Positions 3,211-20,017 of a stretch of DNA of 64,000 nucleotides are shown in pieces. The stretch comes from a bacterium (GTDB lineage: Bacteria > Auribacterota > Erginobacteria > Erginobacterales > DAOSXE01): positions 2,954-66,953 of the forward strand of contig DAOSXE010000012.1 of assembly GCA_035380285.1 (NCBI GenBank), written 5' to 3'. Under the pieces are notes generated by a model. That model saw nothing but the letters and a program-made list of their open reading frames with translations. It made no database searches and had not been told where the DNA came from. The translations under genes and the position numbers were made by a program. The stretch's first letter is position 1, and each line of letters opens with the position of its first letter.

Positions 3211-3212
3211 TC

Positions 3213-4880: not shown

Positions 4881-4888
4881 TTGCCGCG

Positions 4889-4918: not shown

Positions 4919-4924
4919 TATGGC

Positions 4925-4954: not shown

Positions 4955-4961
4955 GACACCC

Positions 4962-5987
4962 ATGAAGACGGCGACCGCAGCGGCGATAGCGTCCTTGACG
5001 TTGCTCTCCGCCGGTTGCGGACGGGAAAGCGCCCCGCTGCTTAAGGAAACCCGGTTCCTGATGGGAACGGTGGTTTCGGTGGAGGCGGAGGCGCACGACG
5101 AAGCGGAAACCCGGCGCGCCCTGGAGGCCGCCTGGGCGGAGATGTCGGGTCTGGAGCAGGTCTTCAGCCGGTGGCGCCCGGAAAGCGAACTCAACCGGAT
5201 ACGGGAAGCACCACCGGGTACGCCGACGCCGCTGAGCCCGGTCATGCTCGAAGTCCTGCTTAAAGCCCGGGAGCTGGGACGGCTGACCGGAGGCGCTTTC
5301 GATCCCACCGTCGGTCCGCTTCTCTCCCTCTGGGGGTTCTTCCCCGAGGGAGGAGGAACCGTTCCCGGGAAAGACGCGATCGCGGACGCCCGGAACCTCA
5401 CCGGATGGGACAAGCTGCGCGTCGATCCGGAGGCCGGAACGGCGACGTTGCTCGCGAGCGGCGTGGAACTCGATCTGGCGGGGGTGGCCAAGGGGTTCAT
5501 CGCCGACCGGGGCGCGGCGGCGCTGGTCCGGGCGGGAGCGGTCCGCGGCCTGGTCAACGCCGGAGGCGATATCGCCTGCTTCGGAGGCAGCCCCGACGGA
5601 GGCCCCTGGAGAATCGGCCTGGAAGACCCCCGGCATCCGGGAGCGATCCTGACCGTCCTGCGGTGCGCGGAGGGGGGAATCGCCACGTCGGGGGATTACC
5701 GCAACTATTTCATTCGCAGCCGGAAACGCTACAGTCACATCATCGACCCCCGGACCGGCGCGCCCGCCGACGCCGGCGTAGTGGAAGCCAGCGTGACCGC
5801 TCCCGACTGCGCCACCGCCGACGGGCTGGCGACGGGCCTGTTCGTCCTGGGACCGGGACCGGGGATCTCCCTGCTCGATCGACTGCCCGGAGTCGAGGGG
5901 ATCATCGTTACCGAGGGGGAAGAAGGCCTGCTGATCTGGCGGTCTTCAGGCCTGGAAGAAACGAAACCCGCGGCGGGGGATCAGTAA
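4962..5987 (+). CDS. apbE: FAD:protein FMN transferase ApbE (lipoprotein)
   Basis: ORF 4953..5987. The start at ATG 4962 gives MKTATAAAIASLTLLSAGC, a lipobox. ApbE motifs are present: GGAFDPTVGPL, DLAGVAKGF, GGIATSGDY, SHIIDPRTG. Confidence 0.9.
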   Translation: MKTATAAAIASLTLLSAGCGRESAPLLKETRFLMGTVVSVEAEAHDEAETRRALEAAWAEMSGLEQVFSRWRPESELNRIREAPPGTPTPLSPVMLEVLLKARELGRLTGGAFDPTVGPLLSLWGFFPEGGGTVPGKDAIADARNLTGWDKLRVDPEAGTATLLASGVELDLAGVAKGFIADRGAAALVRAGAVRGLVNAGGDIACFGGSPDGGPWRIGLEDPRHPGAILTVLRCAEGGIATSGDYRNYFIRSRKRYSHIIDPRTGAPADAGVVEASVTAPDCATADGLATGLFVLGPGPGISLLDRLPGVEGIIVTEGEEGLLIWRSSGLEETKPAAGDQ

Positions 5988-6331
5988 TACACGCGGTCCA
6001 TCACCGAAAGGCGGCCGTTGCGGAACAGCAGCCGGTAGTACCCCGTCCCGAAAACCAGATGGTAACGGTATACCCAGGTTTCGTACCTGACCGTGGGATC
6101 GGAGTAACCGGGGACGAAGAAATTGGGGTCTCCCCAGGCGGCCAGAACGTCGTTCCGGCTCATGCCGACCACGACCTCGCCCCTCCGGATCATCTCCTGT
6201 TTTTCGGCGGACATGCCGGGGTTCAACTCCAGGTAAGCCTCGCGGCGGGCGGAGGTGGCGCAACCGCACGCGGACAGCGCCGCCACAGCGAGAATAAGCG
6301 CCGCGCTTCTCTGGAAGGGAACGGTACTCAT
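5981..6331 (-). CDS. Small lipoprotein, BamE/SmpA-like
   Basis: Internal ATG 6331 of ORF 5981..6769 overlaps the upstream stop (ATGA). Lipobox is ALSACGC. GMSRNDVLAAWGDP resembles the BamE/SmpA_OmlA motif. Confidence 0.6.
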   Translation of the reverse strand: MSTVPFQRSAALILAVAALSACGCATSARREAYLELNPGMSAEKQEMIRRGEVVVGMSRNDVLAAWGDPNFFVPGYSDPTVRYETWVYRYHLVFGTGYYRLLFRNGRLSVMDRVYY

Positions 6332-7479
6332 GGCGTGCCCATTATCCCGGAATCCCCGGGGCTTTTCGAGATTTTTTTCGGACCGAAAAGCTCCGAATAG
6401 CGCCGCCGCCCCATCCCCACCTCCATCATTTTCCGGGCCCGGGCGGGGTTGCTGATGGTACGGCGGTAGATCAGGCGGGGAGCGGTGTCCAGGATCCGGG
6501 CCAGTCGACGCGCCCAGACCAGATCGCCGCCCAGCGCTTCCCTCAGCAGCGCGGAATACTCTTTCAGCGCCCTGCCCCGGCGCAGATGGGCGGCGATCGT
6601 TTCCGCCGCCAGACGCCCGGAAAGAACGGCGGGATAGATGCCCTCGCCGGTAAGAACGTCGGTCAGGGCGGCGGCGTCGCCCGCCACCAGGCAGTGCCCC
6701 CGGACAAGAGGGGTCCGGGGGTAACCCGAGGAGAGGCTTGCTCCGCGAAAACGGGAGGAGACCACCCAATTCTCCAAACCCTCGCGGATCAGGTATTCCC
6801 GCAGCCGGTCGGGCAGGCGGGGGGCGCGGGCGCTACGGGCGGCGGCGCCGACGTTGAGAAAACCCGGGCCGGGAAAGATCCAGGAATACCCCCCGGCCAC
6901 GGCGCCGAAGTCGAAATGAAGCCGATATCGGTACCGCTCCCATACCGGGGCCGGAGGAACCACTCTGGCCTCCAACCCGAAGCCGCGGCCGCGGGAACCG
7001 GGGACCGAAAAAGCCCGGGAAAACCTCGACGAAGACCCGGCGGCGACCACCGCCGCCCGGGCCTGAATCGGCCCGGACGCGGTCGTCGCCCTCACCCCCG
7101 CCCCGGTTTCCTCCAGCCCGACGACCTCGGTTCCTTCGATCAGGCGGGCCCCCGCCGACGCGGCCGACCGCGCCAAGAAAGCGTCGAACTCGGCGCGGTC
7201 GACGACCCAGCCCAGCAGTTCTTCTCCCGCCACCTCGGCGGCGTCGGCGCCCTTCCAGGAAAAAACCGCCCCCGCCACCTCTTCCCGGGAAACTCCGGAA
7301 AAATCCAGGCGCACCTCGGCGGCGACCTTGACCGGGACCCCGCCCGCGCAGCATTTATACCGGGGAATCCGTCGTTTCTCGACCAGGACCGCATCCAACC
7401 CCAGCCGGGCGGCGGCCAGGGCGGCGGCGGCCCCGGCGGGGCCGGCCCCGACGATCAGAATTTCACAGCTGGAGACCAT
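6328..7479 (-). CDS. Geranylgeranyl-reductase-family FAD-dependent oxidoreductase
   Basis: ORF 6328..7479. N-terminal dinucleotide fold ILIVGAGPAGAAAA and the C-terminal motif VAGDAAALTDVLTGEGIY are both present. Confidence 0.8.
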   Translation of the reverse strand: MVSSCEILIVGAGPAGAAAALAAARLGLDAVLVEKRRIPRYKCCAGGVPVKVAAEVRLDFSGVSREEVAGAVFSWKGADAAEVAGEELLGWVVDRAEFDAFLARSAASAGARLIEGTEVVGLEETGAGVRATTASGPIQARAAVVAAGSSSRFSRAFSVPGSRGRGFGLEARVVPPAPVWERYRYRLHFDFGAVAGGYSWIFPGPGFLNVGAAARSARAPRLPDRLREYLIREGLENWVVSSRFRGASLSSGYPRTPLVRGHCLVAGDAAALTDVLTGEGIYPAVLSGRLAAETIAAHLRRGRALKEYSALLREALGGDLVWARRLARILDTAPRLIYRRTISNPARARKMMEVGMGRRRYSELFGPKKISKSPGDSGIMGTP

Positions 7480-7491
7480 GAGCGGGAACGA

Positions 7492-7914
7492 TCAGGACAA
7501 CAGCGCGACGAGGATGATTCCGGCCCCGCAGGCGACCCCCAGAAGACAGATCGTCCGAACGAAAAGATTGTTTCTCCCCGCCACCAGGGCCTTGACCGCC
7601 TGAGGAAACCAACGGGGGAAAAACGCCAGGATAAGAGCCGCGCTTAAAAACACCCCCAGGACCATGGCCAAGAGGAGGAAGGCGGGAACCCGGTCGATCA
7701 GGACCGCGACCGTCGAGTACAGAAACCATATCCCGAAAGCTCCGACGAGGACGGCGGCGAAGCGGATAGCCCAACCGGGAACGTCCGCCAGCCAGGCCGC
7801 CCCTTTCCGGAAACGGGCGGGGTGGGTCACGCCGGGAAACCTCGTCGCCACTATCAGAGCCCCCAAGATCACCATCGTTATCTTGATCGCCGCGGCATTC
7901 ATGAAACTCTCCAT
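7492..7914 (-). CDS. Small integral membrane protein, function unknown
   Basis: ORF 7492..7914 with four hydrophobic segments. An alternative ATG lies at 7902. It sits 12 nt upstream of the next gene. Confidence 0.6.
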   Translation of the reverse strand: MESFMNAAAIKITMVILGALIVATRFPGVTHPARFRKGAAWLADVPGWAIRFAAVLVGAFGIWFLYSTVAVLIDRVPAFLLLAMVLGVFLSAALILAFFPRWFPQAVKALVAGRNNLFVRTICLLGVACGAGIILVALLS

Positions 7915-8132
7915 GAAAAAGTTTGAACGTTCTCCTTCTTACCGGAGTCTATATTGACGAACACAAAGTTTCAAGGTTCCGCTAGGGCGGAATCGAGAAA
8001 CCGGCAGGTTAAACGGTAAACAGGAGAAGCAGCAACTGTTCCGGCACGCTTGAAAGGCCCGAGATTATAAAAAGTCTCACCTCCCTGTTACATGGGCCTT
8101 CAAGAAGCAACCTCCAGAACCTGCCGGACCAG

Positions 8133-8169
8133 GCGAGGGGGCGGGCCACCGCCCCCTCGCTTTTCTTTT
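8133..8169 (+). terminator. Canonical intrinsic terminator on the plus strand (12-bp GC stem, GCCA loop, TTTTCTTTT)
   Basis: GCGAGGGGGCGG-GCCA-CCGCCCCCTCGC at 8133-8160, followed by TTTTCTTTT at 8161-8169. The U-tract exists only in the plus-strand reading, and no plus-strand CDS lies upstream. Confidence 0.6.
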
Positions 8170-8503
8170 ATTCCAGGTTCCAGGTCCGGGCCAGCCACTG
8201 CAGATCGGCGGCTTCTCCGAGATCGGCCGCGTCCGCTTCGGCGTAATCGACCAGAAAATCGAAAATGAGACGGCGGCTCTCCCCGCTCCCGACTCCGGCC
8301 AGAAATTCCTGAAAACCTTCGATCGCGGGAAACTTCTCGTCCACCTCGTTGAAAAGCCGATGGTATTCCTCGTCCCCTAGTTCCCGAGCCACGCGGTCGA
8401 TGTAGGCGGTTTCGCCGGGGGTGGTGCGGAGATCGCTGAGGGTCAGCCACTTGATCGCCCCCACCAGGGCCAGTTTTTCGTCATGAGTCAGTCGGGAAAA
8501 CAT
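8168..8503 (-). CDS. Small acidic cytoplasmic protein (helical, TerB-like suspected)
   Basis: ORF 8168..8503, 111 aa, rich in D/E, with no signal peptide. It begins 11 nt downstream of the C1 protease gene. The fold assignment is a guess from the sequence pattern. Confidence 0.6.
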   Translation of the reverse strand: MFSRLTHDEKLALVGAIKWLTLSDLRTTPGETAYIDRVARELGDEEYHRLFNEVDEKFPAIEGFQEFLAGVGSGESRRLIFDFLVDYAEADAADLGEAADLQWLARTWNLE

Positions 8504-8514
8504 TTCCGCCCTCC

Positions 8515-9309
8515 TTAACGGTCGGCACTTTTCCGTTCGCGAATCAACGCCAGCAGCTGCGGATCGGCGATAAGGTCCGTCGCGCTCCAGGCGTCCAGGC
8601 AGTAGTTCATCATGTAATCATATCCGAGGCAACCGTATCCTCGCTCTCCCCAGGATTCGCCCCAGGAGTTTTTGAACTTGAAATACCTTCCCTCCCGGCT
8701 GTATCCGACAACGCAGACGGCATGGCCGCCGAGCGGCCCCGAACCGTCGGCAGGGTCGGGAATGAGGCCGCCGGGAGCGTCGAACCACTCGGGAAAAACC
8801 TCCACCCCGGCCAGAAACGGGCCGTTGACGGCCAGGCTGCGCTCCATTTCGGCGGGACCGGAAAGCCGGACATAGGTGCCGATCCGGTAAGAAGCGGCCT
8901 GGGCATCGGCTTCCCCGCAGGGCGCGTCGCTCTGGTAGGGGCGGTAGGGCCAGCAATCCTCCCGGCATACCCCTTTTTCGGACAGGATTTTCATGGCCGT
9001 CCGGGGGTAGGTGCCTTCCTGATGCGGAATCCCGTCTTCCCGCTTGCAGGCGGCGTAGAGATAACGGGGGGAAAGCTCGATCAGGGTCCCGTGCTCCTTT
9101 TTCTCCTGGTATTCCTTCACCCCGACCACGGCGGCGAAACCGACGCAGGTTCCTTCTTCCCCCTGATCGCGAACCGGACTCATCCGGGAGGCGTAGTCGA
9201 TCTCTTCCGGCGCGGCCAGGCGGGGTAGGACGAGGGAGACGGGAATGTCCCTCCGGTCGTCGGGATCCTTGAGGCAACCCAGCCCGTAAACTCGCTTCCT
9301 CCGATTCAT
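8515..9309 (-). CDS. Papain-family (C1A) cysteine protease, no signal peptide
   Basis: Catalytic motifs are present: VRDQGEEGTCVGFA (Gln/Cys), GGHAVCVVGY (His) and KNSWGESWGERGY (Asn-Ser-Trp). The ATG overlaps the upstream stop (ATGA at 9306-9309). Confidence 0.9.
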   Translation of the reverse strand: MNRRKRVYGLGCLKDPDDRRDIPVSLVLPRLAAPEEIDYASRMSPVRDQGEEGTCVGFAAVVGVKEYQEKKEHGTLIELSPRYLYAACKREDGIPHQEGTYPRTAMKILSEKGVCREDCWPYRPYQSDAPCGEADAQAASYRIGTYVRLSGPAEMERSLAVNGPFLAGVEVFPEWFDAPGGLIPDPADGSGPLGGHAVCVVGYSREGRYFKFKNSWGESWGERGYGCLGYDYMMNYCLDAWSATDLIADPQLLALIRERKSADR

Positions 9310-11384
9310 TGCACCCCTCCTTGCGCAGCGCCCCCGCCGGGAGCGGTTCCGTTATCGGCCCGATAAACCCGGACCTCGAAATTGGCGTCGGGTGATTCGC
9401 GGTCGGGGCGGGCGGGCAGATGATCCCAACAGCGTTCCCAGATAACCGAATGCAGGGGTATCGTTTGTCTCAAGGTGAAGTTCAAACCGGTCCCGGAAGG
9501 GGGAGCCCCGTCGGTAAGGTAGTAGATCCCGCCGGGGAGGGAGTGTCCCCGGGTAAGAATCCGGAACCCGGCCGCCACCCCGTCCCGGTCGTCCCGGTAG
9601 AGCGGAAGCACCCGACGCCCCAGGGCCAGATCGAGGTAGGTGGGGACCTTGTCCACAAAACCGCCTCCGGCCAGGACCGGCGCGTCGGCCTTGATCTCTC
9701 CCGCCAACCACCGGGCGAACCCCAGAGCGCCGGCGTACTCCCGATGGAACCAGATGGGCCGGGACGCCAGGGCGGTGAGGACCGCGGTCAGCACGAAAAC
9801 GAGGGAGGCCGGCCCGCGCAGCCTCCGGCTGGAAAACCCCCGAGTCAGGGCGGCGGCGGCGAAAGCCACCCCCCCGGGGATGACGACCACGATATAGCGT
9901 CGAACCGCCCACATATAGCAGAAATGGATGAGTTGCTGCCAGAGGAAGAGCCCTCCGAAAACCAGCAGCACCAACAGGAGAAACCAGCGGGACGGCGACC
10001 GGTCCGCCGCCACCTGTCCCGCCATGCCCGCCAGGGCCAGGACGAGGCCGGGAACGGTGAGGAACCAGCCCAGCTCCAGGAAGTTGGTCCGTTCCGGATT
10101 TTCGACCCCGAGCCCCGGCCGGACGCAATAACCGAATATCGCGGCCGCCACCAGAACCAGCGCGACCGCGAGGCGGCATCGCTTCCCGGAGACCAGGGAG
10201 GCCAGGGCGCGGCGGGTACCCCGGCCCGAAAACCGGGCCGCCGCCAGACTCAGGACCAGGATCCCGGCGGCGACAAGCAGGATGCGCGATCCCGCCAGCT
10301 GAGCCGCCGCCAAGCGGGCATACCCGAATCCGAAGAAAACATGGGGAAGGAGGGAGAAACCCAGGCCGGCCAGCGCGGGGACCAGAAACCAAAGGTCCCG
10401 CGGGCGGAAAACCAGAAACCAGCGGCCGTAGTAAAAAAGAGCCAGGGGCAGCAGGAGCAGGGCGGAACTGATGTGGGAGACGAAAAAACATCCGAAAAAA
10501 ACTCCGGCCAGCAGTCCGGTTCTCCGCCCCGATCGTTTATTGAACGCCGCGAAACAGTAGAGCCCGGCAAAGAAAAGGAACTGGCTGAGTATTTCGCTGG
10601 TAGGGAAGCGCGCCTGCCAGATTTCGGCGACGTTGAGGGAGAGAAGCAACGTCCCCGCCAGGGCCGTCCGCCATTCCCAGAGCCGGCGCAGGGCCAGAAA
10701 GAAGGCGCATAAGGCCATCAGGCCCGCCAGGGGATTGAGCCAGAACATCCCGGCCAGCCCCGCCCAACGGTAGAAAACGGCCAGCCAGAGGGGGAAGAGG
10801 TGGTAGAACTGGGGGATAAGGCGACCGGGGCGGGAGGGATCGAGACGAAAGCCCGGATACTTCTCCAAGTACCCGGAGCTGTGCCGGGCGGCGAAGGCGT
10901 CGAGTTCGCCCGGAGTCAGAGCGGCGATAACCGGATCGTCGATCGCCAGTTTCCCCGTCCGTTCCAGATGGATCCCGGTGTTGACGTAAACTCCGGGGTC
11001 CCATCCCCCGAACAGGTAGGGGACCGGGCGGGCGAAGAACAGCGCCGCCAAGACCAGGACGCCGGGCAGGATCCAGCGGGGGGGGCGGCCGGGGGGCGGC
11101 GGGGGAACGCTCCGCAGGCGGGGTCGGGCCAGGAGCATGACCGACAGCGAGTAGAGGGCGTCCGCCAAAGCCAGCCCGGAGACCGAGAAAATCCCCAGAT
11201 AAGCCATGATCAGCCCCAGCACCGAAGAAACGCAGAAACTGACCGCCACCACCAGGAAACAGCATTCCCCCCTGGTGGAGTACGGCAGACGGAGGCGTTT
11301 GCCGGGCAGCCCCAGGGTCAACGCCCCGGGAAAAACCAGCAGAAGAACAACCTCCAGGATGATGACCAAGAGCTCAACCAACAT
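9306..11384 (-). CDS. Large polytopic membrane protein, GT-C-like (PMT/ArnT-type) glycosyltransferase candidate
   Basis: ORF 9306..11384, 692 aa, with more than 12 hydrophobic segments plus a roughly 130-aa C-terminal soluble domain. Function is inferred from architecture only. Confidence 0.55.
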   Translation of the reverse strand: MLVELLVIILEVVLLLVFPGALTLGLPGKRLRLPYSTRGECCFLVVAVSFCVSSVLGLIMAYLGIFSVSGLALADALYSLSVMLLARPRLRSVPPPPPGRPPRWILPGVLVLAALFFARPVPYLFGGWDPGVYVNTGIHLERTGKLAIDDPVIAALTPGELDAFAARHSSGYLEKYPGFRLDPSRPGRLIPQFYHLFPLWLAVFYRWAGLAGMFWLNPLAGLMALCAFFLALRRLWEWRTALAGTLLLSLNVAEIWQARFPTSEILSQFLFFAGLYCFAAFNKRSGRRTGLLAGVFFGCFFVSHISSALLLLPLALFYYGRWFLVFRPRDLWFLVPALAGLGFSLLPHVFFGFGYARLAAAQLAGSRILLVAAGILVLSLAAARFSGRGTRRALASLVSGKRCRLAVALVLVAAAIFGYCVRPGLGVENPERTNFLELGWFLTVPGLVLALAGMAGQVAADRSPSRWFLLLVLLVFGGLFLWQQLIHFCYMWAVRRYIVVVIPGGVAFAAAALTRGFSSRRLRGPASLVFVLTAVLTALASRPIWFHREYAGALGFARWLAGEIKADAPVLAGGGFVDKVPTYLDLALGRRVLPLYRDDRDGVAAGFRILTRGHSLPGGIYYLTDGAPPSGTGLNFTLRQTIPLHSVIWERCWDHLPARPDRESPDANFEVRVYRADNGTAPGGGAAQGGVQ

Positions 11385-11405
11385 GCGCTGCTTTCCCCGG
11401 GCGCG

Positions 11406-11414
11406 ATTGTACCA
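11406..11414 (-). promoter_or_regulatory. Extended -10 element TGGTACAAT
   Basis: Minus-strand read: CACGTGGTACAATCGCGCCCGGGGAAAGCAGCGCATG. It shares GTGnTACAATCGCG with the element at 4889-4900. Confidence 0.4.
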
Positions 11415-11447
11415 CGTGCCCCCCCGTCAGGTAACCGCGAAGCCGGG

Positions 11448-14186
11448 TCAGGGGATAACGGCGCAGGCCGCGTCCAGGTCGAAACCGGAAGCCCCGGTCC
11501 CGGACAGCGCGTCCATCTCCGCGGTGTGCCGGACCAGGTCTCCGTTCTCGTCTTCCAACCAGAGGTCCCCGGTGGATTGGATGCGGATGTATTGAATCCA
11601 GTCCAGCCCCAGTTCGGAGATGTCGAACTGGTCGCCCCCGGAAACGGAGGGGTCGGTCGGATCGGGATAGCCGCCGTTGCTGTATACCGGATTGACGCCG
11701 GCGAAGCCCCGGTTGTAATTGTAGGGGTTGCTGAGATCCGAAGTCGGAAAATAATTGAAGGGGAACCGCTTCCAGTCGATCCCGTTGCGGCTGACCGAAA
11801 CCACCGCCGGCTCCATCCAGCGCCGGGCTTCGCCCCCGTCGTAAAGATAGAACACGTTTTCGAAGACGCTGAAGTCCTCTCCGGTCCCATCCGCGATGAG
11901 GTTGTCGAATTTGAGGGTTATGCTCCCCCCGTAGGGTGGCCCCTCGGGGTCGCCGGCCCGGAGCGCGTGCAGGGGCGCCACGTCCCGGCTCCCCTGCCAG
12001 GAACCGCCCCCCCGGGGAACCCCCAGACATTTTTCCGGATCCCCGGCGGACGCCGGGTCGAGGGGGGCATAGTCGACGACGTGGTCGGCGCAGGGGTCGT
12101 TCTCGCCGTTCAGGCTCACCGGTAACGGCACGGCGGAAACCACGGTCTCTTCGCCCAGCGGGCCGGGGAGGCCGGCGAGGTCGTAGACCACGACCGCGTA
12201 ATGGTAGGCGGACCCGTCTTCCAGGCCCGTATCCAGGTACGATTCCCCCCCCCCCACGTAGACTTCCTCCCCGTCGAGGGGACCGCGGGGGACGTGCAGG
12301 GAATTGCGTATGACCGAAATTTCCCGGAACGGTTCGTGCGGGTTGTCCCAGGCCAAGCCCACCGTCCGCGAAGATACCGCGCAGGAGAGCGCGGCGATTT
12401 CCAGTTCCCCCTGCGCCGGGCTCGGCGTCGTCTTCGGCGTGGGAACGCCTCCGGCGGGGGTCGAAGTCCGCCGGGGGGACGGCGTCGTGCCCGGGGTGGG
12501 GGAGACCGGCTCCGGAGTCTGCCGCGGAGTGGGCGTGGGGGTGGGCCCGGTCAGAACCTTCATCTGAAAATCGCCGGCGATTTCGCCGCCGCCCGAGTCT
12601 GCGACCAGGACGCGGAAAGAGAAGAAGGAAGCCTCGGCATAAGCGTCGGAAACGGTTCCGAAGATGATGCCGGCGTTGGGGTCGAGAACCAGGTATTCGG
12701 GCAGCGAACCCGAGACCAGCGAAAACGTATAGGGGGGGCTCCCTCCCGTGACTCCGACCTCGAACTGGTATTCCCGGCCGATGCGGACCTCGGCCTCGTC
12801 CGAGCCGCCCGGATACAGTCCGGTCAACTGAACCTGTTCGTAACCCACCGTCAAACGGAAATCGGCCTGGGCGGTCAAGCTCCGCCGGTCCGCGGCCAGG
12901 ATACGGAGATCGAAAATACCCGCTTCTTCGGGGATCCCCCCGATCTCCCCGGAAGCGGAGGCCAGGTAGAGTCCCGGAGGGAGATTCCCGACGGAGACGG
13001 TCCAGGTATAGGGAGGCGTTCCCCCTTCGGCCGTCAGGCTCTGGGCGTATAAAGACCCTCGAACCGCCGGAGCCAATTCCCGGGTGGTGATTTTAAACCC
13101 GCCGTACAGGCCCCCCGGCCCCTCGGGCCCGGCGATCGCAAGAAGAAAATCGCGCTCGGCCTGACGACCCTGAGAATCCTGGGCCCGGACGGTGAACCGA
13201 TATTCCCCCTCTTCCGAGGAAGTCCCGGCGACGATCCCGCGGGAGCCGTCCAGGGCGCAGCGGGGAGGCAGTTCGCCGGCCAGCAGTCTCCAGGAGTAGG
13301 GGGGGACGCCGCCCTCAGCGCGCAGGGCGCAGGAATAGGGCTCCCCGATCGTTCCGGGAGGAAGCGCCTCGGTGACGATCCGGAAAACGCCCTCGGCGAC
13401 CCGGAGGGTGAAGTTGGAGGTATCGGAGTCGCCTCCCCGGTCCGCGACTTCGAAACTGACCTCGAAATCGCCCAACTCCCGGGGAAGCCCCAGCAGCACT
13501 CCTCGGCGCGGCTGCAGCCGGATATCTCCGGGAAGGCTTCCGGAGACCAGCGCCCACGAATACGGAGGAGTTCCGCCCTCCGCCGAGAGCGGCGACTGAT
13601 ACCAAACCCCCAGGACCGCCGGAGGGAGGTCTTCGGTGACGATAACCGGCCCGGGCGCGGAACCGGGAGAATCGACCCGGACGATCATGCGCATGGCCCG
13701 GCGCGCCCTCCGCCCGCCGCCCTCGCGGACCGCCACGGTAAACCGCCATTCCCCGCCGTCCTCGGGTACCCCGGCGATGGTCCCGTCCTCGGCCAGTTCC
13801 AACCCGGGGGGAAGTTCGCCCGCGGCCAGAAACCACCGGGCTTTTCCCCGGGCCCCACGGACCTGAAGCCGGAATTCGTAGGCCGTCCCCACCACGCCCA
13901 TGGGGATATCGAGAGAAACGATCTCCAGGGGGGGGAGCGTGGGAGCGGGGCGGGGGGTCGCCCGACCGTCGGCACGGTTTCGCGGCCTCCCCCGGAGAGG
14001 CGCCCCCCGGCGCTGTTCCAGGTAGGGGTTTTTCGCCCGGGAAGCTTCCCGTTCGGCGGCTTCCCTCCGCCGCGCGGAGGCCCGGGAAGGGAACAGCAGG
14101 TCCTCCCCGGGACCGAACACGAAAGCGGCCGCCGCCGCCAGCACCAGGATCGAAACCGGAAGCAGCCTTTTCCAATCCGCTCTCAC
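11448..14186 (-). CDS. Cell-surface protein with about six Ig-like (He_PIG-type) repeats, Pro/Thr linker, FN3-like domain and an unknown C-terminal domain
   Basis: ORF 11448..14186. The GTG start gives the signal anchor RADWKRLLPVSILVLAAAAAFVFG. Repeated units match the pattern GGTPPYSW..VSGSLPPGL.L....G.I.G.P...G.F.F.V.V.D. The linker reads TGPTPTPTPRQTPEPVSPTPGTTPSP. Confidence 0.8.
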   Translation of the reverse strand: MRADWKRLLPVSILVLAAAAAFVFGPGEDLLFPSRASARRREAAEREASRAKNPYLEQRRGAPLRGRPRNRADGRATPRPAPTLPPLEIVSLDIPMGVVGTAYEFRLQVRGARGKARWFLAAGELPPGLELAEDGTIAGVPEDGGEWRFTVAVREGGGRRARRAMRMIVRVDSPGSAPGPVIVTEDLPPAVLGVWYQSPLSAEGGTPPYSWALVSGSLPGDIRLQPRRGVLLGLPRELGDFEVSFEVADRGGDSDTSNFTLRVAEGVFRIVTEALPPGTIGEPYSCALRAEGGVPPYSWRLLAGELPPRCALDGSRGIVAGTSSEEGEYRFTVRAQDSQGRQAERDFLLAIAGPEGPGGLYGGFKITTRELAPAVRGSLYAQSLTAEGGTPPYTWTVSVGNLPPGLYLASASGEIGGIPEEAGIFDLRILAADRRSLTAQADFRLTVGYEQVQLTGLYPGGSDEAEVRIGREYQFEVGVTGGSPPYTFSLVSGSLPEYLVLDPNAGIIFGTVSDAYAEASFFSFRVLVADSGGGEIAGDFQMKVLTGPTPTPTPRQTPEPVSPTPGTTPSPRRTSTPAGGVPTPKTTPSPAQGELEIAALSCAVSSRTVGLAWDNPHEPFREISVIRNSLHVPRGPLDGEEVYVGGGESYLDTGLEDGSAYHYAVVVYDLAGLPGPLGEETVVSAVPLPVSLNGENDPCADHVVDYAPLDPASAGDPEKCLGVPRGGGSWQGSRDVAPLHALRAGDPEGPPYGGSITLKFDNLIADGTGEDFSVFENVFYLYDGGEARRWMEPAVVSVSRNGIDWKRFPFNYFPTSDLSNPYNYNRGFAGVNPVYSNGGYPDPTDPSVSGGDQFDISELGLDWIQYIRIQSTGDLWLEDENGDLVRHTAEMDALSGTGASGFDLDAACAVIP

Positions 14187-14192
14187 CGGCCG

Positions 14193-14201
14193 ATCTTACC
14201 A
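14193..14201 (-). promoter_or_regulatory. Extended -10 element TGGTAAGAT, 6 nt upstream of GTG 14186
   Basis: Minus-strand read: GGGGAAATTGGTAAGATCGGCCGGTGAGA. No Shine-Dalgarno sequence lies between it and the start codon. Confidence 0.4.
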
Positions 14202-14237
14202 ATTTCCCCGGCTAATAAACAGGGCGGGGATCGCCTC

Positions 14238-16793
14238 TTAGCGCGCCAGGGGGACATCGCCCTCCCCTCCGAAATAAAACCTGGTTTTTCCCCGAACCGC
14301 CCACAAGCCGGAGGTTCCTCGAAAAACGGCGGGGTCGGCGGTGCCGTCGCCGTCCCAATCGACCACCACCGGAAGGTCCGATTCCCTACCGAAATGCAGC
14401 CGGGTGACGCCGCGGACGGCCCAGAGCCCGCCGCGGGGGCGGAATATCGCTATGTCCGCCTTCCCGTCGCCGTCGAAATCCCCTCTCAGAGGAACGTCCT
14501 CCTCCGACCCGAAAAACACCCGGTCGGCGCCGATCCGCCACAACCCCGACGCGGCGCGGAAAACGGCGGCGCATACCTCGGGACCCGTCCAGGGGGCGGG
14601 GAGGGGGGTATCTTCTTCCCGGCCGAAATAAAACCGGCTTATCCCCCGCACGTTCCAGAATCCGGCGGAGGCCCGAAAAATCGCGGCCGCGGCGGACGCG
14701 TCGCCGGCCCAGGCCGCGGGGACGGGGGTGTCGCCGGCACGGCCGAAATAAAAACGGGTGTCGCCCCGGACCGCCCAGAGTCCGGCGCCGGGACGGAAAA
14801 CCGCGGGCAGGTCCCCGAAACCGTGGGCGCCGAAGAAGGGAAGATCGCCGGCGGCACCGAAAAACACCCGGGTCGTTCCCCGCAGCCACCACGCCGAAAC
14901 GCCGGGACGGTAGATCCCGACCGCGGCGGGGACGGGATCGGCGAGGTCGATTTCCGAGATCGAGGAGTTGTAGTTGGCGTAACTCGTGCACAGCACCCCC
15001 AAAGTTCCCCCCGGCGCGATCGCCAGGGTCCCGGGAGCGTCGTCGCTGCAAGCCACGACACGCGGGTCCGAACCCGCTTCTTCGAGCAGGCAGACGTTTC
15101 CTTGATAGGAAGAATAAAACAAGCCCCGGTCGCTCCAGGCCATCCCCGAACAGGGCTGGGAACTCTCCTCCAGCCAGGCGATCCCGTCGCTGGCGACCAG
15201 CGGCACTCCCGAACTCAGGGCCTGGTCGATCCGGGAACGCCCGAAGCGGACGACCTGGGGACTGGCGGGGGCGGCGAAGCCGTAGTAGAGGTTCCCCTCG
15301 CCGTCCACCGCCACCGGCCCGGAATAGCCGCCGACGTCGGCCAGGGGCACGGGGCCGGCCTCGCTGCCGACAGTCCAACAGTAAAGCCGATTGCCGGGCT
15401 GGAAGGTAGCCGCGCTGGGGTTGGCGGAGAGAAACATCCTCCCGGCGCCATCGACGGCGCAGTCGTAGTTGCCCGTCAGGTCGAACCCTTGCCGGGGAAA
15501 GGAGCCGATCCCGCGGCCGCCCCCGGGAATCGTGAAGAGCGGGCGCCCCGGTTCGCTGCCGTCGCAGGGGACGCTCAACACCCGGTTGGTGGCGCTTTCC
15601 CCGAAGTAGACGGTTTCCCCGAAGACCCGCACGAAACTGCCGTAGTACCAGGGGTCGCCGAAGTCGTACAGGGTCTGCGAAGAAAATCCGGGGTTCTTGA
15701 CCAGGTAGCGGGCGCCGACGAAGGCGTACAGGTTGCCGGCAGCGTCGTAATCGAAGGCCTGCAGCCCCGGGACCCATTCCGTCGGTATCCCCAGACCCCC
15801 GGCGAGCAGGCCGCATTCCCCCGTGGAAGCCGTGAGCAGGGGGGCGCAATCCATGAGGAAAACGGTGCTGCCGTAGTCGGTCCAGTCGCTGGCGACCACG
15901 GCGATCTCGCCGGGCGCGGCCACGGCCACCGGCCCCAGGGAACCGGGCGCCGCGCCGCCGAATGCCTGCAGCCGCCCCGGCGAACTCTCTCTCCAAAGCT
16001 CGCCGCCGCTGGTGGCGACCAGAATCCCGGCCGCGGCGTCCGCCCCCGAAAGCCCGCTGGGGGCGTAGATCCCCGACGCCGCCAAACCGGCGTCCAGAAC
16101 GGTCAGGACCGGACCTCCCGCGACCGCGGCCGCGACCTGGGAGGCGCTCCAAACCGCGACACTTTCCGGGCGGGGAGGATAACTGCGGTAGAGACCGTAG
16201 TAGAGGTTGCCTTCGGGGTCGAAATCCAGGGGCCCGGAATAGCCGCCGGGACGAGCCACCGGAAAGGGCTCGCCCGATCCCGGCCAGCAGTAGATCCGGT
16301 TTCCCGCCCCGTCGGGGTTGGCGCTGACGAACATGCGCCCGGCGGGATCGAAGGCGCAGTCGTAGTTGTAGGCCAGGGCGAAATCGGAGCCGCGCCGGCG
16401 GGGAGGCGGGAGCCGGAAGAGGACCCGGGACTCCCCGGAACCGTCCCGCGGAACCGAGCGGACGCTGCCGTAGCTGCTTTCTCCGAAGTAAACGGTCCGG
16501 CCGCGGATGGCGACGAAACTCCCATAGACGTCGCTCTGGTAGGAGAACAGAACTTCCGGCACCCCTCCCTCGTACTCCAGGGAATACAGGGCGCTGTCGT
16601 GGATGTAGACGACTCCATCGGAGTCGGCGTCGAACCCCTCGATACCCGCTTTCCACCGGGAGGGATCGCCCGGAAGAGAGATCAAGGCCCGGGCGACGTG
16701 CCCGGGCGGAGGGGTAAAGTCCGGATACGCGAGCGCGCCGGCGGCGCCCCACAGAACCGCGGCCGCGGCCCCGACTGACAACCCTGTCTTCAT
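14238..16793 (-). CDS. Secreted 851-aa protein with two beta-propeller-like modules and six C-terminal FG-GAP-like repeats
   Basis: ORF 14238..16793. GGGAGG lies 5 nt before the ATG. The signal peptide is MKTGLSVGAAAAVLWGAAGALA. The internal duplication shows in VYFGESSYG...NYDCAFDPAGRMFVSANP...GNLYYG versus VYFGESATN...NYDCAVDGAGRMFLSANP...GNLYYG. Confidence 0.85.
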   Translation of the reverse strand: MKTGLSVGAAAAVLWGAAGALAYPDFTPPPGHVARALISLPGDPSRWKAGIEGFDADSDGVVYIHDSALYSLEYEGGVPEVLFSYQSDVYGSFVAIRGRTVYFGESSYGSVRSVPRDGSGESRVLFRLPPPRRRGSDFALAYNYDCAFDPAGRMFVSANPDGAGNRIYCWPGSGEPFPVARPGGYSGPLDFDPEGNLYYGLYRSYPPRPESVAVWSASQVAAAVAGGPVLTVLDAGLAASGIYAPSGLSGADAAAGILVATSGGELWRESSPGRLQAFGGAAPGSLGPVAVAAPGEIAVVASDWTDYGSTVFLMDCAPLLTASTGECGLLAGGLGIPTEWVPGLQAFDYDAAGNLYAFVGARYLVKNPGFSSQTLYDFGDPWYYGSFVRVFGETVYFGESATNRVLSVPCDGSEPGRPLFTIPGGGRGIGSFPRQGFDLTGNYDCAVDGAGRMFLSANPSAATFQPGNRLYCWTVGSEAGPVPLADVGGYSGPVAVDGEGNLYYGFAAPASPQVVRFGRSRIDQALSSGVPLVASDGIAWLEESSQPCSGMAWSDRGLFYSSYQGNVCLLEEAGSDPRVVACSDDAPGTLAIAPGGTLGVLCTSYANYNSSISEIDLADPVPAAVGIYRPGVSAWWLRGTTRVFFGAAGDLPFFGAHGFGDLPAVFRPGAGLWAVRGDTRFYFGRAGDTPVPAAWAGDASAAAAIFRASAGFWNVRGISRFYFGREEDTPLPAPWTGPEVCAAVFRAASGLWRIGADRVFFGSEEDVPLRGDFDGDGKADIAIFRPRGGLWAVRGVTRLHFGRESDLPVVVDWDGDGTADPAVFRGTSGLWAVRGKTRFYFGGEGDVPLAR
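14241..14924 (-). repeat. Six tandem ~38-aa repeats (FRPxxGLWAVRGxTRxYFGxxGDxPVxxDxDGDG)
   Basis: Read from the translation of the last 228 aa of the 851-aa protein. The same module occurs at 61511..62245. Confidence 0.85.
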
Positions 16794-16830
16794 TCCCGCC
16801 TCCCGATGGTTGTTCGCGGCGCGGGAGGGG

Positions 16831-16862
16831 AAAAACCCACCCCCGCTTCAAGCAAGGGTGGG
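16831..16862 (-). terminator. Intrinsic terminator forming the riboswitch expression platform
   Basis: Minus-strand read: CCCACCCTTGC-TTGAA-GCGGGGGTGGG, an 11-bp stem including 2 G-U pairs, followed by TTTTT. It lies between the aptamer and the RBS of the 851-aa gene. Confidence 0.75.
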
Positions 16863-16903
16863 CCGACGGCTCCCAGGCTCTTTTACGCGAAGGTCCTTGA
16901 GCA

Positions 16904-16991
16904 CGCGCGGCAGGGCGTTCTGACTTCTCCCGTGGGAGTTACAGCGGCGCGACCGTCCCGGAGTCTCACCGGGTTTCCCCTGCTCCGCGCG
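16904..16991 (-). promoter_or_regulatory. Cobalamin (B12) riboswitch aptamer
   Basis: Minus-strand read: CGCGCGG-AGCAGGGGAAACCCGGTGAGACTCCGGGACGGTCGCGCCGCTGTAACTCCCACGGGAGAAGTCAGAACGCCCTG-CCGCGCG. It has a P1 helix, the conserved GGTGAnAnTCC...GCCGCTGTAA core and a B12-box-like AAGTCAGAAcGCCCTGCC. Confidence 0.8.
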
Positions 16992-17009
16992 TAATTCTAC
17001 TATGGCGGA

Positions 17010-17039
17010 ACTCTAATCTCCGGAGCCGGCGCCGGTCAA
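17010..17039 (-). promoter_or_regulatory. Candidate promoter for the riboswitch transcript (TTGACC-18-TAGAGT)
   Basis: Minus-strand read: TTGACCGGCGCCGGCTCCGGAGATTAGAGT. The predicted start is about 10 nt before P1. It is back-to-back with the divergent promoter at 17048. Confidence 0.4.
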
Positions 17040-17082: not shown

Positions 17083-17466
17083 ATGGACGCCAAGATCAAG
17101 CTCTCCCTGATCAATAACCGGGGCGAAGGGTTCATGGGCATCGGCCTGGTCTGGCTCTTGAAGAACATCGACGAGTGCCGCTCGATCTCGGGAGCCGCCC
17201 GGAGTATGAAGCTCTCCTACGTCAAGGCGCTGCGGATCGTCAACCGCCTGGAAAAGAACCTGGGGCGCAAGGTCGTCAACCGGACCCGTGGAGGCGACAG
17301 CCGGGGCGGGACCGAGCTTACCCCCTTCGGCCGCCGGTTCCTGGAAGCCTACGAGCGTTACCAGGCCGAGGTCGATCGAGCCGCCCGGGCCGGATTCCAA
17401 CGGTTTCTCGGGAGCGGCTGGGACCGGGAAGACCGGGCCGCACCGGGGCTCAGATCAGAAGATTGA
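17083..17466 (+). CDS. Stand-alone winged-HTH regulator, ModE N-terminal-domain-like
   Basis: ORF 17083..17466. RSISGAARSMKLSYVKALRIVNRLEKNLGRKVVNRTRGGDSRGGTELTPFGRRF parallels the ModE/LysR-type HTH. No Mop domain is present. Confidence 0.75.
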   Translation: MDAKIKLSLINNRGEGFMGIGLVWLLKNIDECRSISGAARSMKLSYVKALRIVNRLEKNLGRKVVNRTRGGDSRGGTELTPFGRRFLEAYERYQAEVDRAARAGFQRFLGSGWDREDRAAPGLRSED

Positions 17467-19255
17467 GGAGCGTCCCCACCCCCAGGGACGCCCCCACCAT
17501 CACCGCCAGGGACTTGAGAAAATCCCTCGTCCCCAGTTCCTTGAGCAGAACGGTGAAGGTGGCCACGCAGGGGAAGAACATGGCCAGAACGGTGCAGGCG
17601 ACCACCAGCTGCCCGGGTGCGAGGTCGAGCGGCTCCAGCATCCCCACGGCCATGTCCTTGCGCAGAAACCCGATGGCCAGGGCGGCCACCGATTCCCGGG
17701 GAAGCCCGAGCAGGCCCTCCACCACCGGCGCCGCCCAGCGGGAAAGACGATCGAAAACGCCGAAGAAGTAGAGGACGTTCACGGCCGCCACCCCGATCAG
17801 AATCACGGGGAGCGCCTCGCGGAGAAAACACCAGACCCGCACCCCGACTTTGCGCAGGAACGGCCCGGGCGGAGGGAGGCGGTAATGGGGGATTTCGATG
17901 ATCAACTCGGGGGAATAACCTTTGACCAGGCGGCTGAGGACGAAACCGAGGCCCAGCCAGGTGGCGAAGAGCGCCAGATAAACGGCGGCCACGTAGCGCA
18001 GGCCCCACCGCCCCAGGAGGCCCACGACCATGGCCTGCAGCGCGGCGCAGGGGACCGCGATCGAGATCAGGGTCGAAGCCAGAAACCGCTCCCTCCGGCT
18101 CTCCAGTATCCGGGTGGCGAGAATGGCGGGGACGTTGCACCCCAGTCCCAGGAGGGTGGGGATAATAGCGTACCCATGCAGCCCGACCCGGTGCATGACC
18201 CCGTCCAGGAGAACCGCGAGACGGGGGAGGTAGCCGAAGTCTTCGAGGAAACTCAGGACCAGGTAAAAAACGGCGACATAGGGCAGAACGATGCCCAGGG
18301 GAATGAAGATGCCGGTGGTGAGCATCCCGAAGGAATCCATCAGGTCGACGCGCCCGGAGATCAGGTGTCCGACCAGAAGGTCGTGAACGAACCCCGCGCC
18401 GCCCAGCCACTCGGAGAGCCGCGAGACCACCGGGACCCACAGGGTTCGAAAAAGGTATTCGGTCCCGAAACCGATTTTTAAAAACGGCTCCCCCCATACC
18501 CCCACTTCACCGGCCACCAGGAACTCCCCCAGCAGCCGCACCAGGGAAAACGCCCCCAGAATGACCAGAACCGCGATCGGTATCCCGGTCCAGGGGCGGA
18601 CGCTGAGATCGGAGAGCGTCTGCAGAAACGTATGGTGGTGGTGGACCAGGGTCTGCACCCTGGAAACGATGCGCCCGATCGCGAGCCAGCGGTCTTCCTC
18701 GCTCAGGGGACCCAAGCCCGGGGAGCGGGCCTGGGGCAGGCGGGCCACCATCTCCCGGATCCCTTCCCCGGTGATGCCGACGGTGGGAACGACCGGGACC
18801 CCGAGCATCTCCTCCAGGAGGGGCGCGTCGATCTTCACTCCCCGGTGGGCGGTTTCGTCCCACATGTTGAGCGCGACGATCGCCGGGACCCCGGACTCGA
18901 GCACCTGCAGGACGAAATAGAGGTTCCGCTCCAGGTTGGTGGAGTCGACCACGCAGACGGCGTAGTCCGAATCCCGGAGGATCTCCAAGGCGACCCGGTC
19001 CGAACGCGAAGCGGCGTCGAGGCTGTAGACTCCGGGCGCGTCGATGATCTCGATGCGCTGCCCGGGCCGGAAGCGGCCGTCGCCGCCGTCCTCCAGGTCC
19101 GAAGGCCAGGTGAGGTTGCCCCGGGAATATCCGACCGTCGTCCCCGGGTAATTGGAAGAGATGACGTGAACCCCGGTCAGGCGGTAAAAAACCACGCTTT
19201 TACCGACGTTGGGGTTCCCCACCAGGGCGACGGAGGGATGGGACGGGGCGTTCAC
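17450..19255 (-). CDS. feoB: Ferrous iron transporter FeoB
   Basis: ORF 17450..19255 with a GTG start overlapping the feoA stop (GTGA). It has the G-domain motif VALVGNPNVGKS followed by a polytopic permease. Confidence 0.92.
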   Translation of the reverse strand: MNAPSHPSVALVGNPNVGKSVVFYRLTGVHVISSNYPGTTVGYSRGNLTWPSDLEDGGDGRFRPGQRIEIIDAPGVYSLDAASRSDRVALEILRDSDYAVCVVDSTNLERNLYFVLQVLESGVPAIVALNMWDETAHRGVKIDAPLLEEMLGVPVVPTVGITGEGIREMVARLPQARSPGLGPLSEEDRWLAIGRIVSRVQTLVHHHHTFLQTLSDLSVRPWTGIPIAVLVILGAFSLVRLLGEFLVAGEVGVWGEPFLKIGFGTEYLFRTLWVPVVSRLSEWLGGAGFVHDLLVGHLISGRVDLMDSFGMLTTGIFIPLGIVLPYVAVFYLVLSFLEDFGYLPRLAVLLDGVMHRVGLHGYAIIPTLLGLGCNVPAILATRILESRRERFLASTLISIAVPCAALQAMVVGLLGRWGLRYVAAVYLALFATWLGLGFVLSRLVKGYSPELIIEIPHYRLPPPGPFLRKVGVRVWCFLREALPVILIGVAAVNVLYFFGVFDRLSRWAAPVVEGLLGLPRESVAALAIGFLRKDMAVGMLEPLDLAPGQLVVACTVLAMFFPCVATFTVLLKELGTRDFLKSLAVMVGASLGVGTLLNLLI

Positions 19256-19479
19256 GGCCTCTCCACCAGAACGCGGGCGCCCATGCGGTGACCGAGAGCG
19301 ATCCGGGTGCCGCCCACCTGAACCACGATCGGACCCTTGAAGGGCATCCCGCTGATCTTGGTCACCGTCTTGCCTACTCTCAACCCCATAGCCGCCACCC
19401 GCGCGGCGCCACCCGCGCCTTCCTCGAATCCGACCACCAGGGCGGTTTCGCCGTCCCTCAGCTCGGTCAGCCTGATCAC
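19252..19479 (-). CDS. feoA: FeoA-family protein
   Basis: GTG 19479 within ORF 19252..19584 overlaps the fur stop (GTGA) and follows GGAGGGGAGG. The 75-aa product begins VIRLTELRDGETALVVGFE and is SH3-like FeoA. Confidence 0.85.
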   Translation of the reverse strand: MIRLTELRDGETALVVGFEEGAGGAARVAAMGLRVGKTVTKISGMPFKGPIVVQVGGTRIALGHRMGARVLVERP

Positions 19480-19937
19480 GCCCTCCCCTCCTTCTTTTTC
19501 CGGCAGCGCGCGCAGAGGCCGCGGATGGTGAGACGGCCGGCGGAAGGGAGAAAAGCCCGTTCCCGGCAGACGGCGTCGATACATCGGGTCAAAGGCTCCG
19601 AGGCGACTTCCTCGAGCCGCCCGCAGCCCGAACAGAGGAGGTGGTAATGCGGTTCCGCTCCCGAAACCCGCTCGTAAATCTGCGAACCCTGAATGGAGGC
19701 CGCCCGCCGGATCAGCCCCGCCTCTTCCAGCAGGGGAATCAGCCGATAGACGGTGGCCAACCCCACCGCGAGGCCGCGGCGGGGGATCCGTTCATGGAGT
19801 TCGTGAACCGCGAAATGATCGCGGGATTCCATGACCGCTTCCAGCACCGCCCGGCGCTCCCGGGTATAGCGCAAGCCCCGCCGGCGGAGAAATTCCCGGA
19901 AGAGGGCGTCGGCTTCGTTGTCGATTGCCGGTTTCAT
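19476..19937 (-). CDS. fur: Fur-family metalloregulator
   Basis: ORF 19476..20024 trimmed to ATG 19937 (MKPAIDNEADALFREFLRRRGLRYTRERRAVLEAV). HYHLLCSGCGRLEEV is present, along with a C-terminal CxxC. Confidence 0.85.
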   Translation of the reverse strand: MKPAIDNEADALFREFLRRRGLRYTRERRAVLEAVMESRDHFAVHELHERIPRRGLAVGLATVYRLIPLLEEAGLIRRAASIQGSQIYERVSGAEPHYHLLCSGCGRLEEVASEPLTRCIDAVCRERAFLPSAGRLTIRGLCARCRKKKEGRA

Positions 19938-19940
19938 ATT

Positions 19941-19959
19941 GATAATGAATCTCAGTTTC
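19941..19959. promoter_or_regulatory. Fur-box-like operator GATAATGAATCTCAGTTTC
   Basis: 13 of 19 positions match the classical GATAATGATAATCATTATC. It sits 3 nt upstream of the fur ATG, in the divergent spacer shared with the 20057 gene. Confidence 0.4.
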
Positions 19960-20017
19960 CATATCTTGGGGCTTTCGGTACGCCCTGTCAAGCGATTGTT
20001 TGCCGGAGAAAGTCTGC

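Follow-up and report, generated by a model that had tools for sequence, protein, structure and literature searches.

A riboswitch-headed gene cluster from an Auribacterota bacterium encodes a domain with probable remote homology to the cobamide-binding BtuH family

Introduction

Competition for cobamides shapes communities in uncultured anaerobic environmental phyla. To our knowledge, the capture of vitamin B12 by dedicated surface proteins has been worked out so far only in gut Bacteroidota, for the proteins BtuG, BtuH, BtuJ and BtuK. Here we describe a run of five genes (G1–G5) that lies behind a cobalamin riboswitch on the minus strand of a 64,000-nucleotide stretch of contig DAOSXE010000012.1 (assembly GCA_035380285.1), referred to below as the window. 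They encode a secreted multi-propeller protein (G1), a protein with immunoglobulin (Ig)-like repeats (G2), a polytopic membrane protein (G3), a papain-family protease (G4) and a small acidic protein (G5).

The BtuH family of Bacteroides thetaiotaomicron includes BtuH1 (BT1488), BtuH2 (BT1956) and the H domain of BtuG1/BtuGH (BT1490), with structures in PDB entries 7BIZ and 8BLW; homologues have been reported in 37 gut-associated Bacteroidota (PMC13616437). In BtuG1, an N-terminal propeller is followed by some 250 C-terminal residues, a B12-binding extension with homology to BtuH2 (PMC10404256, PMC8941943). BtuG and BtuK are cobamide-binding surface lipoproteins with β-propellers of the YncE family (8BMX, 8OKV, 9S6C), and BtuJ (DUF4465; 9FCT, 9I2L) represents calcium-bound β-jelly-roll B12 binders encoded in riboswitch loci of several phyla, including the PVC group (PMC13398666).

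The G2 protein and the BtuH family share a setting in cobalamin-riboswitch loci and a C-terminal domain of calcium-type jelly-roll or globular form (predicted for G2) that is borne by Ig-like repeats, and the architectures of BtuH1, BtuH2 and BtuGH (PMC13616437) match the three forms in which the G2-type domain occurs: alone, on an Ig-like stalk and fused to a propeller. G2 differs in having He_PIG rather than PKD repeats and in lacking a lipoprotein signal and an adjacent BtuB gene, and its host belongs to the Auribacterota/PVC-group bacteria rather than to the gut Bacteroidota. G1 resembles BtuG and BtuK in being a secreted propeller protein, encoded first behind the riboswitch and accompanied by a BtuH-type domain, in one locus within the same protein, but it is built from two six-bladed LRP/YWTD-like propellers and an FG-GAP-like array and has neither a lipobox nor a BtuB partner. 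BtuJ and the G2 domain are both extracellular β-jelly-rolls; however, the conserved GTPAYF loop of BtuJ is absent from the consensus of the G2-type family, and no BtuJ structure is found among the top 50 Foldseek matches of the domain. G3, which is polytopic, has an invariant aspartate and adjoins a protein with a Pro/Thr linker, recalls the PMT_2/GT39 O-mannosyltransferases that act on Ser/Thr-rich linkers, but the window protein scores below the Pfam threshold and has no match in the PDB.

An earlier note on this DNA held that the combination of genes matches no system known to its author. That statement is too strong, in that the architecture mirrors the BtuG/BtuH/BtuGH accessory proteins of Bacteroides (PMC8941943, PMC10404256, PMC13616437), and the cluster is best read not as categorically new but as varying a theme known from Bacteroidota, cobamide capture under riboswitch control. 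We propose, with a probability of roughly 60%, that it forms a module, repressed by cobalamin, for the capture of cobamides outside the cytoplasm of a two-membrane bacterium of the Auribacterota/PVC group. The proposal that B12 is captured outside the cell follows from two features taken together, namely that a riboswitch heads a conserved cluster and that the G2 protein of this cluster carries a remote BtuH-type domain.

Results and discussion

The C-terminal domain of G2

G2 comprises an N-terminal signal or anchor, five He_PIG Ig-like stretches (Pfam E = 2.8e-44), a Pro/Thr linker and a C-terminal domain. The earlier note had listed about six He_PIG-type repeats, the linker, an FN3-like domain and an unrecognized C-terminal domain; the repeats (as five stretches) and the linker were recovered and the last domain indeed has no Pfam match, but no tool found an FN3 domain. 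The predicted structure of the C-terminal domain is a β-sandwich with a mean predicted local distance difference test score (pLDDT) of 81 and a predicted TM-score (pTM) of 0.84. A Foldseek search with this model gave a single match below an E value of 1e-3, chain B of PDB entry 8blw (BtuG1 of B. thetaiotaomicron; E = 3.3e-5, probability 1.0). The same chain was the sole match of a domain-only profile among 177,635 distinct PDB sequences (E = 0.15), the aligned residues (420–499 and 623–637) falling inside the BtuH-like extension and covering the most conserved motifs of the family. Comparison of the 80-residue BtuG1 fragment with an independent 40-member alignment of the domain using hhalign gave a probability of 90.5% (E = 1.4e-6). 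Taken singly, each of the three results is weak; that all of them single out one and the same domain of the entire PDB is strong evidence, and the C-terminal domain of G2 is probably a remote homologue of the BtuH cobamide-binding domain.

Other assignments were considered for this protein. Identity of the domain with DUF4465/BtuJ was rejected, as the window domain has no Pfam match up to an E value of 10 and none of the 34 family members matches DUF4465 up to an E value of 1. A partial NCBIfam match, LIC_13355, led to a binding study of a putative Leptospira lipoprotein with no link to B12. Searches of the PDB with the single sequences of G1, G2 and G3 returned nothing usable.

The domain family in other lineages

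Among 1.84 billion representative proteins, a profile of the G2-type domain retrieved 3,720 clusters at E ≤ 1e-3 and 2,203 at E ≤ 1e-10, and none of the 34 members scanned is covered by a Pfam model over the domain itself. The domain occurs alone, in proteins of about 210–300 residues, or at the C-terminus of long proteins, in which its partners include He_PIG, PKD, Big_2, dockerin, type IX secretion system (T9SS) tails and, once, a YncE-type propeller; three architectures can thus be distinguished, with the domain alone, behind Ig repeats or behind a propeller.

The genomic context was examined for six members (loci L031–L035 and L037). All three standalone members with an assessable upstream region (L032, L033 and L034) lie behind a strong cobalamin riboswitch (76–95 bits). 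In L032 and L034 the riboswitch is followed by a propeller of ~395 residues and then by the domain protein; the L034 propeller weakly matches the solved BtuG structures and is 40% identical to that of L032. Homology of the L034 propeller to G1 was also considered and rejected (hhalign probability 0.2%). In L033 the riboswitch is followed by the domain protein and the adenosyltransferase CobA/BtuR. In L037, from a Deltaproteobacteria bin, positions 1–4177 encode a TonB-dependent receptor, a 398-residue protein, a Big_2 protein with the G2-type domain, a 175-residue DUF6580 protein and TonB, in what looks like an outer-membrane uptake operon; no riboswitch was seen there, the operon start lying beyond the contig end. 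The L031 member is a 214-residue C-terminal piece encoded downstream of a Calx-beta/He_PIG gene, with no riboswitch in the 4.5 kb upstream, at which point the contig ends. A further locus, L030, carries a riboswitch (58.8 bits) followed by a 595-residue fusion of a G1-like propeller (hhalign 95.6%) and a G2-type domain (99.3%).

Several neighbouring features of these loci may be recorded. L033 has two divergent cobalamin riboswitches, at 5527–5721 (minus) and 5817–5981 (plus), with scores of 101.6 and 94.5 bits; one leads the domain protein and CobA/BtuR and the other leads genes for proteins of 159 and 505 residues. In L034, at a distance of 3 kb from the riboswitch-headed pair of BtuG-like and domain genes, there are an S-adenosylmethionine (SAM-I/IV) riboswitch match on the opposite strand (8907–9014, minus), a methylenetetrahydrofolate reductase (MTHFR) gene and a B12-dependent methionine synthase gene (9122–12807). 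In L030, the riboswitch and the gene for the fusion protein (4169–6233) are followed, at the stop codon of that gene, by a gene (6233–7087) for a protein with a prepilin-type N-terminal methylation motif and, 395 nucleotides further on, by an extracytoplasmic function (ECF) sigma factor gene (7482–8120).

The riboswitch and its leader

The riboswitch that the earlier note had placed at the head of the cluster is borne out by two matches to families of Rfam clan CL00101 (cobalamin): RF01689 (adenosylcobalamin, AdoCbl-II) scores above its threshold at 16905–16990 (37.9 bits; threshold 36.5), and RF01482 (AdoCbl) falls just short of its own over the full aptamer (47.8 bits; threshold 50; E = 1.8e-7). 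Behind the aptamer stands an intrinsic terminator that the terminator scan missed and that was established by reading and folding the sequence. An aptamer followed by a GC-rich hairpin and a T-run is found in all 14 related loci examined, and the switch is therefore regarded as a conserved OFF switch that terminates transcription. The anatomy of riboswitch and terminator is observed directly; that the pair responds to its ligand in this manner is what we infer from it. Downstream of the terminator, a hairpin in which CCTCCCG pairs with the Shine–Dalgarno sequence of G1 may add translational control of this gene, and an equivalent pairing is present at about 3970–4000 in the closest relative, L001.

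Conservation of the locus

Related loci were gathered by gene look-ups and by scans of genome and metagenome collections, with near-identical copies removed. The G1-bearing set comprises 22 distinct loci (21 and the window), all from Auribacterota or PVC-group bins; where a source is named, it is either 'PVC group bacterium' or Candidatus Euphemobacter frigidus, the latter a member of the Auribacterota (PMC9324843). In 20 of the 22 (the window and 19 others), the G1 relative has directly upstream of it a cobalamin-clan riboswitch whose score reaches the Rfam threshold. The Euphemobacter-type locus gives a sub-threshold match (38.1 bits, E = 0.002), and L014 is cut off, its contig beginning 363 nucleotides before the G1 relative.

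G2 follows G1 in every locus with enough contig, making G1–G2 the constant core. Downstream of it there usually follow G3, G4 and a 140-residue membrane protein, and this order recurs even where the identity of G1 is only 36–42%. G3 is present in five of the 21 related loci (L001/L003, L004/L013/L023, L005/L011, L014); no G3 adjoins the cluster in L010, L012 or L016, and in L010 there is no G4 either. The best conserved gene of the cluster is G4, at 63–71% identity. G5, for which neither Pfam nor NCBIfam gives a family match, was found by jackhmmer over L001–L016 only in L001; it is lineage-specific and outside the conserved core. The five genes proposed earlier as a unit are thus not the conserved set: the gene for the 140-residue protein, which lies beyond G5, is conserved instead. 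Matches to its product were obtained with tblastn in L004, L011, L012, L013, L014, L016, L019, L023 and L029, and in the window it has promoter-like sites of its own at 8091–8064 and 7974–7946.

Some loci contain additional genes. A rubrerythrin-like gene is inserted between G3 and G4 in L004 (17791–18303), and a conserved 443-residue protein is encoded in the interval between G4 and the gene for the 140-residue protein in L011 (19714–21045) and L012 (17509–18840). An extra gene on the opposite strand lies between G2 and G3 in L005/L011 (about 12005–12889 and 15383–16267, minus) and between G2 and G4 in L012, which has no G3 (14470–15738, minus); in clustering of open reading frames (ORFs) these genes group with the G1 family.

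Proteins accompanying the domain

G1 has a signal peptide and, in an AlphaFold model (pLDDT 70.9), two six-bladed β-propellers at residues of about 30–315 and 330–616, followed at the C-terminus by six FG-GAP-like repeats of 38 residues that are modelled with lower confidence; Pfam reports one FG-GAP match. The best Foldseek matches are the tandem propellers of LRP6 and LRP2 (E of about 1e-15). The LRP2 (megalin) matches reflect the fold class and are not a link to a B12 receptor. The family is very small, with about 20 distinct members confined to PVC-group or Auribacterota bins, most of which are shorter and have one propeller instead of two. A phmmer search of PDB sequences with G1 gave no match. 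By sequence comparison, G1 belongs to a separate and new propeller family, distinct from BtuG.

The earlier description of G3 as GT-C-like finds support. Its own match to Pfam PMT_2 is below threshold (E = 0.005), while 25 of the 36 members of its family match PMT_2 (best E = 4.6e-7) and others match PMT, STT3 or GT22; Asp129, in the WDPGVY motif of a putative early loop, is invariant across the family. These results support the assignment of G3 as a putative GT-C-type (PMT_2/GT39-like) glycosyltransferase, and a search of the PDB with the family profile gave no usable match. Glycosylation of the G2 linker by G3 was tested by covariation: the Pro/Thr linker occurs both with and without a neighbouring G3, so there is no support from covariation for G3 acting on it. 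A second PMT_2 GT-C glycosyltransferase with a clearer match (E = 3e-10) is encoded elsewhere in the window (58787–60409, plus). Close to it lies the gene for an 817-residue protein that matches an FG-GAP-like repeat and Reelin subrepeat B (61508–63961, minus), and the two may be another pairing of an envelope protein with a glycosyltransferase.

G4 is a papain-family protease without a signal peptide, as had been noted before: it matches Peptidase_C1 with 88.6 bits (threshold 20.7; E = 8e-25), and in our reading of the sequence Gln49, Cys55, His196 and Asn214 are all intact. G5 is acidic as described, with a net charge of about −12 by residue count; judged from its sequence, it might be a TerB-like helical repeat protein or an inhibitor of proteases of the staphostatin type.

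Candidate internal promoters

Extended −10 elements ahead of G2 and G3 (Table 1) had led to the suggestion of internal promoters, and both are present and statistically well supported. The underlying pattern, TGNTANNNT, occurs eight times in the 64 kb of the window compared with 34.6 ± 5.9 times in shuffled sequences, an approximately fourfold depletion; all seven minus-strand copies lie just 5′ of minus-strand genes, that for tRNA-Gln included, and two of them fall within the 114 nucleotides that the G1–G2 and G2–G3 gaps make up together. The elements at G2 and G3 are not due to chance. Given such credible elements, the riboswitch may gate G1 most tightly in this genome. In the related locus L004, G1 and G2 overlap and must therefore be co-transcribed. 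Two of the sites, 14201 and 4897, stand only 7–9 nucleotides ahead of a start codon, a hint that the organism may have leaderless transcripts.

Proposed function and alternatives

The source organism is taken to have an outer membrane since the window encodes BamA, Skp and LpxB. In the proposed mechanism, AdoCbl at high intracellular concentration would bind the aptamer and the terminator would halt transcription, with read-through when B12 is scarce. G2 would then present its BtuH-type jelly-roll domain, a putative cobamide binder, on a stalk of Ig-like repeats and Pro/Thr linker, and the secreted multi-propeller protein G1 would cooperate with it as the BtuG/BtuK propellers do in Bacteroides. 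The remaining parts, among them the glycosylation or processing of surface proteins by G3 or G4 suggested in the earlier note, are conjectural: the target of glycosylation by G3 would probably be the linker or else the envelope, G4 may cleave a component of the module or free cobamide from a protein that binds it, and the 140-residue membrane protein might be a partner with no assigned role. G2 and G3–G5 may also use their own promoters in this genome. The earlier idea of corrinoid scavenging is strengthened by the riboswitch before the G1 relatives, by the probable BtuH homology of the G2 domain and by the linkage of this domain to riboswitches elsewhere.

A number of observations weigh against this proposal. 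The similarity of the G2 domain to BtuH is remote (E = 0.15 in the profile hidden Markov model search); the structural alignment with 8blw_B has a TM-score of 0.44 and a root-mean-square deviation of 12 Å over 310 columns, with the aligned region not reported, and BtuH2 (7BIZ) is absent from the matches listed for the domain by Foldseek and by the PDB profile search. The start of G2, MRADWKRLLPVSILVLAAAAAFVFGPGE, contains no cysteine, so that there is no lipobox, and the missing lipoprotein signal leaves no explanation for how the protein would reach the outside of a two-membrane cell. G1 has no significant sequence match to BtuG, its profile reaching YncE at an E value of 0.07 only, and its six-bladed LRP-like modules are not the seven-bladed propellers of the YncE type. 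G4, with no hydrophobic N-terminus in our reading, is a poor fit to an extracellular role, and G2–G5 may be uncoupled from the riboswitch by internal promoters in this genome. BtuB, BtuFCD and other B12 transporters were not found among the window genes scanned, a TonB-dependent receptor neighbours a member of the domain family in L037 only, and cobamide binding by the G1 or G2 families is putative. L035, the most distant member of the domain family tested, has no riboswitch within 5 kb.

The structural neighbours of the G2 domain that follow BtuG1 also count against cobamide capture, most being carbohydrate-binding CBM32 or discoidin (F5/8-type C) jelly rolls, and they suggest an alternative in which the domain is a carbohydrate or surface binder and the cluster builds a B12-regulated adhesin; under B12 scarcity this would fix the bacterium to particles or to partners that make B12, with no binding of cobamides by the adhesin itself. 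He_PIG, PKD, Big_2, dockerin and T9SS partners are typical of adhesins, and the binding activities of the Leptospira lipoprotein LIC_13355, the partial NCBIfam match, have been evaluated (PMC11891782). We nevertheless consider adhesion quite unlikely, as it leaves unexplained both the standalone forms of ~270 residues that stand behind riboswitches beside BtuG-like propellers, CobA/BtuR or a TonB receptor, and the fact that the sole sequence match in the PDB lies inside a proven B12-binding domain. Uptake of a metal or of another tetrapyrrole (cobalt, iron or haem), with a riboswitch that merely reports cobalt or B12 status, is very improbable: FeoB and Fur are indeed encoded immediately upstream here and in L008, L009, L011, L016 and L028, and in L035 the most distant homologue of the domain has HmuY genes as neighbours, but FeoB and Fur lie upstream of the riboswitch and not under its control, G1–G5 contain no metal-transport domain, and the links to BtuH and BtuG point specifically to cobamides.

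It is also conceivable, if unlikely, that the B12 regulon is confined to G1 or to G1 and G2, and that G3–G5 are unrelated envelope or housekeeping genes with their own promoters, held in place by the synteny of the lineage. The candidate extended −10 elements before G2 and G3, the lack of conservation of G5, the missing signal peptide of G4, the loci from which G3 or G4 is absent and the absence of covariation between linker and G3 would all fit such a division. The recurrence of G3, G4 and the 140-residue protein in order among loci with strongly diverged G1 argues against this division, as does the 4-nucleotide overlap of G3 and G4 in the window. For G1 and G2, a regulon of this smaller extent is compatible with the capture of cobamides.

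The capture reading, if true, would make the BtuH-type domain far more widespread than reported and would extend it into uncultured anaerobic environmental phyla. The small domain and the new propeller family are testable candidates for cobamide binding; they also supply a signature in sequence by which thousands of secreted proteins now called 'hypothetical' could be annotated. The association of a GT-C enzyme and a papain-like protease with such a cluster for vitamin uptake is an unexplained lead. A more far-reaching version, which we regard as speculative and rather doubtful, would see in the G1 propeller family and the G2-type domain an unrecognized system of cobamide capture, found widely across phyla and operating with no co-encoded TonB-dependent BtuB. 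In that case G1 would define a new class of B12 binders, the family of ~3,700 clusters would be the environmental counterpart of BtuH, and the Auribacterota version would include a dedicated GT-C enzyme together with a papain-like protease serving to free cobamides from the corrinoid proteins of dead cells.

Features of the window

The coordinates of the cluster and of its control elements are collected in Table 1. The arrangement described in the earlier note, five co-directional minus-strand genes with defined spacings, was reproduced: the gaps from G1 to G5 are, in order, 51, 63, −4 (an ATGA overlap) and 11 nucleotides, and the coding status of all five genes is backed by codon-position GC content. 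The hairpin 3′ of G5 is likely to mark the end of the transcription unit.

Table 1. Positions in the window of the cluster genes and of predicted or observed elements
Feature	Position	Strand	Description or basis
Promoter-like site	17010-17039	minus	TTGACC, 18 nt, TAGAGT; consensus scan, position only; just upstream of riboswitch
Cobalamin (AdoCbl-type) riboswitch aptamer	16869-17004	minus	Rfam covariance matches
Intrinsic terminator	16831-16862	minus	11-bp GC-rich hairpin and T5; sequence reading and folding
Hairpin over Shine-Dalgarno sequence of G1	16799-16828	minus	CCTCCCG paired with CGGGAGG; fold, downstream of terminator
G1	14238-16793	minus	851-aa ORF
Extended -10, candidate internal promoter	14193-14201	minus	TGGTAAGAT; 7 nt before G2 GTG
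G2	11448-14186	minus	912-aa ORF, GTG start
G2 C-terminal jelly-roll domain (predicted)	11451-12122	minus	residues 689-912; model, Foldseek and profile
Extended -10, candidate internal promoter	11406-11414	minus	TGGTACAAT; upstream of G3
G3	9306-11384	minus	692-aa ORF
G4	8515-9309	minus	264-aa ORF
G5	8168-8503	minus	111-aa ORF
Hairpin 3' of G5	8131-8162	not assigned	14 bp, GC-rich; sequence and terminator scan
Four-helix membrane protein	7492-7914	minus	140 aa; conserved downstream of G4 in relatives
TGNTANNNT sites	54506, 47481, 32001, 14201, 11414, 4897, 2353	minus	window scan

On the far side of the riboswitch, and transcribed away from it, is a gene for a 127-residue LysR-family helix-turn-helix protein (17083–17466, plus). 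The FeoB and Fur genes, with the same neighbourhood in the loci named above, lie just past it (17450–19255 and 19476–20024, both minus). Further along, at 22987–27642 on the plus strand, the window encodes a protein of 1,551 residues in which HEAT repeats take up nearly the whole length (22 HEAT_2 stretches); such a protein is unusual for a bacterium.

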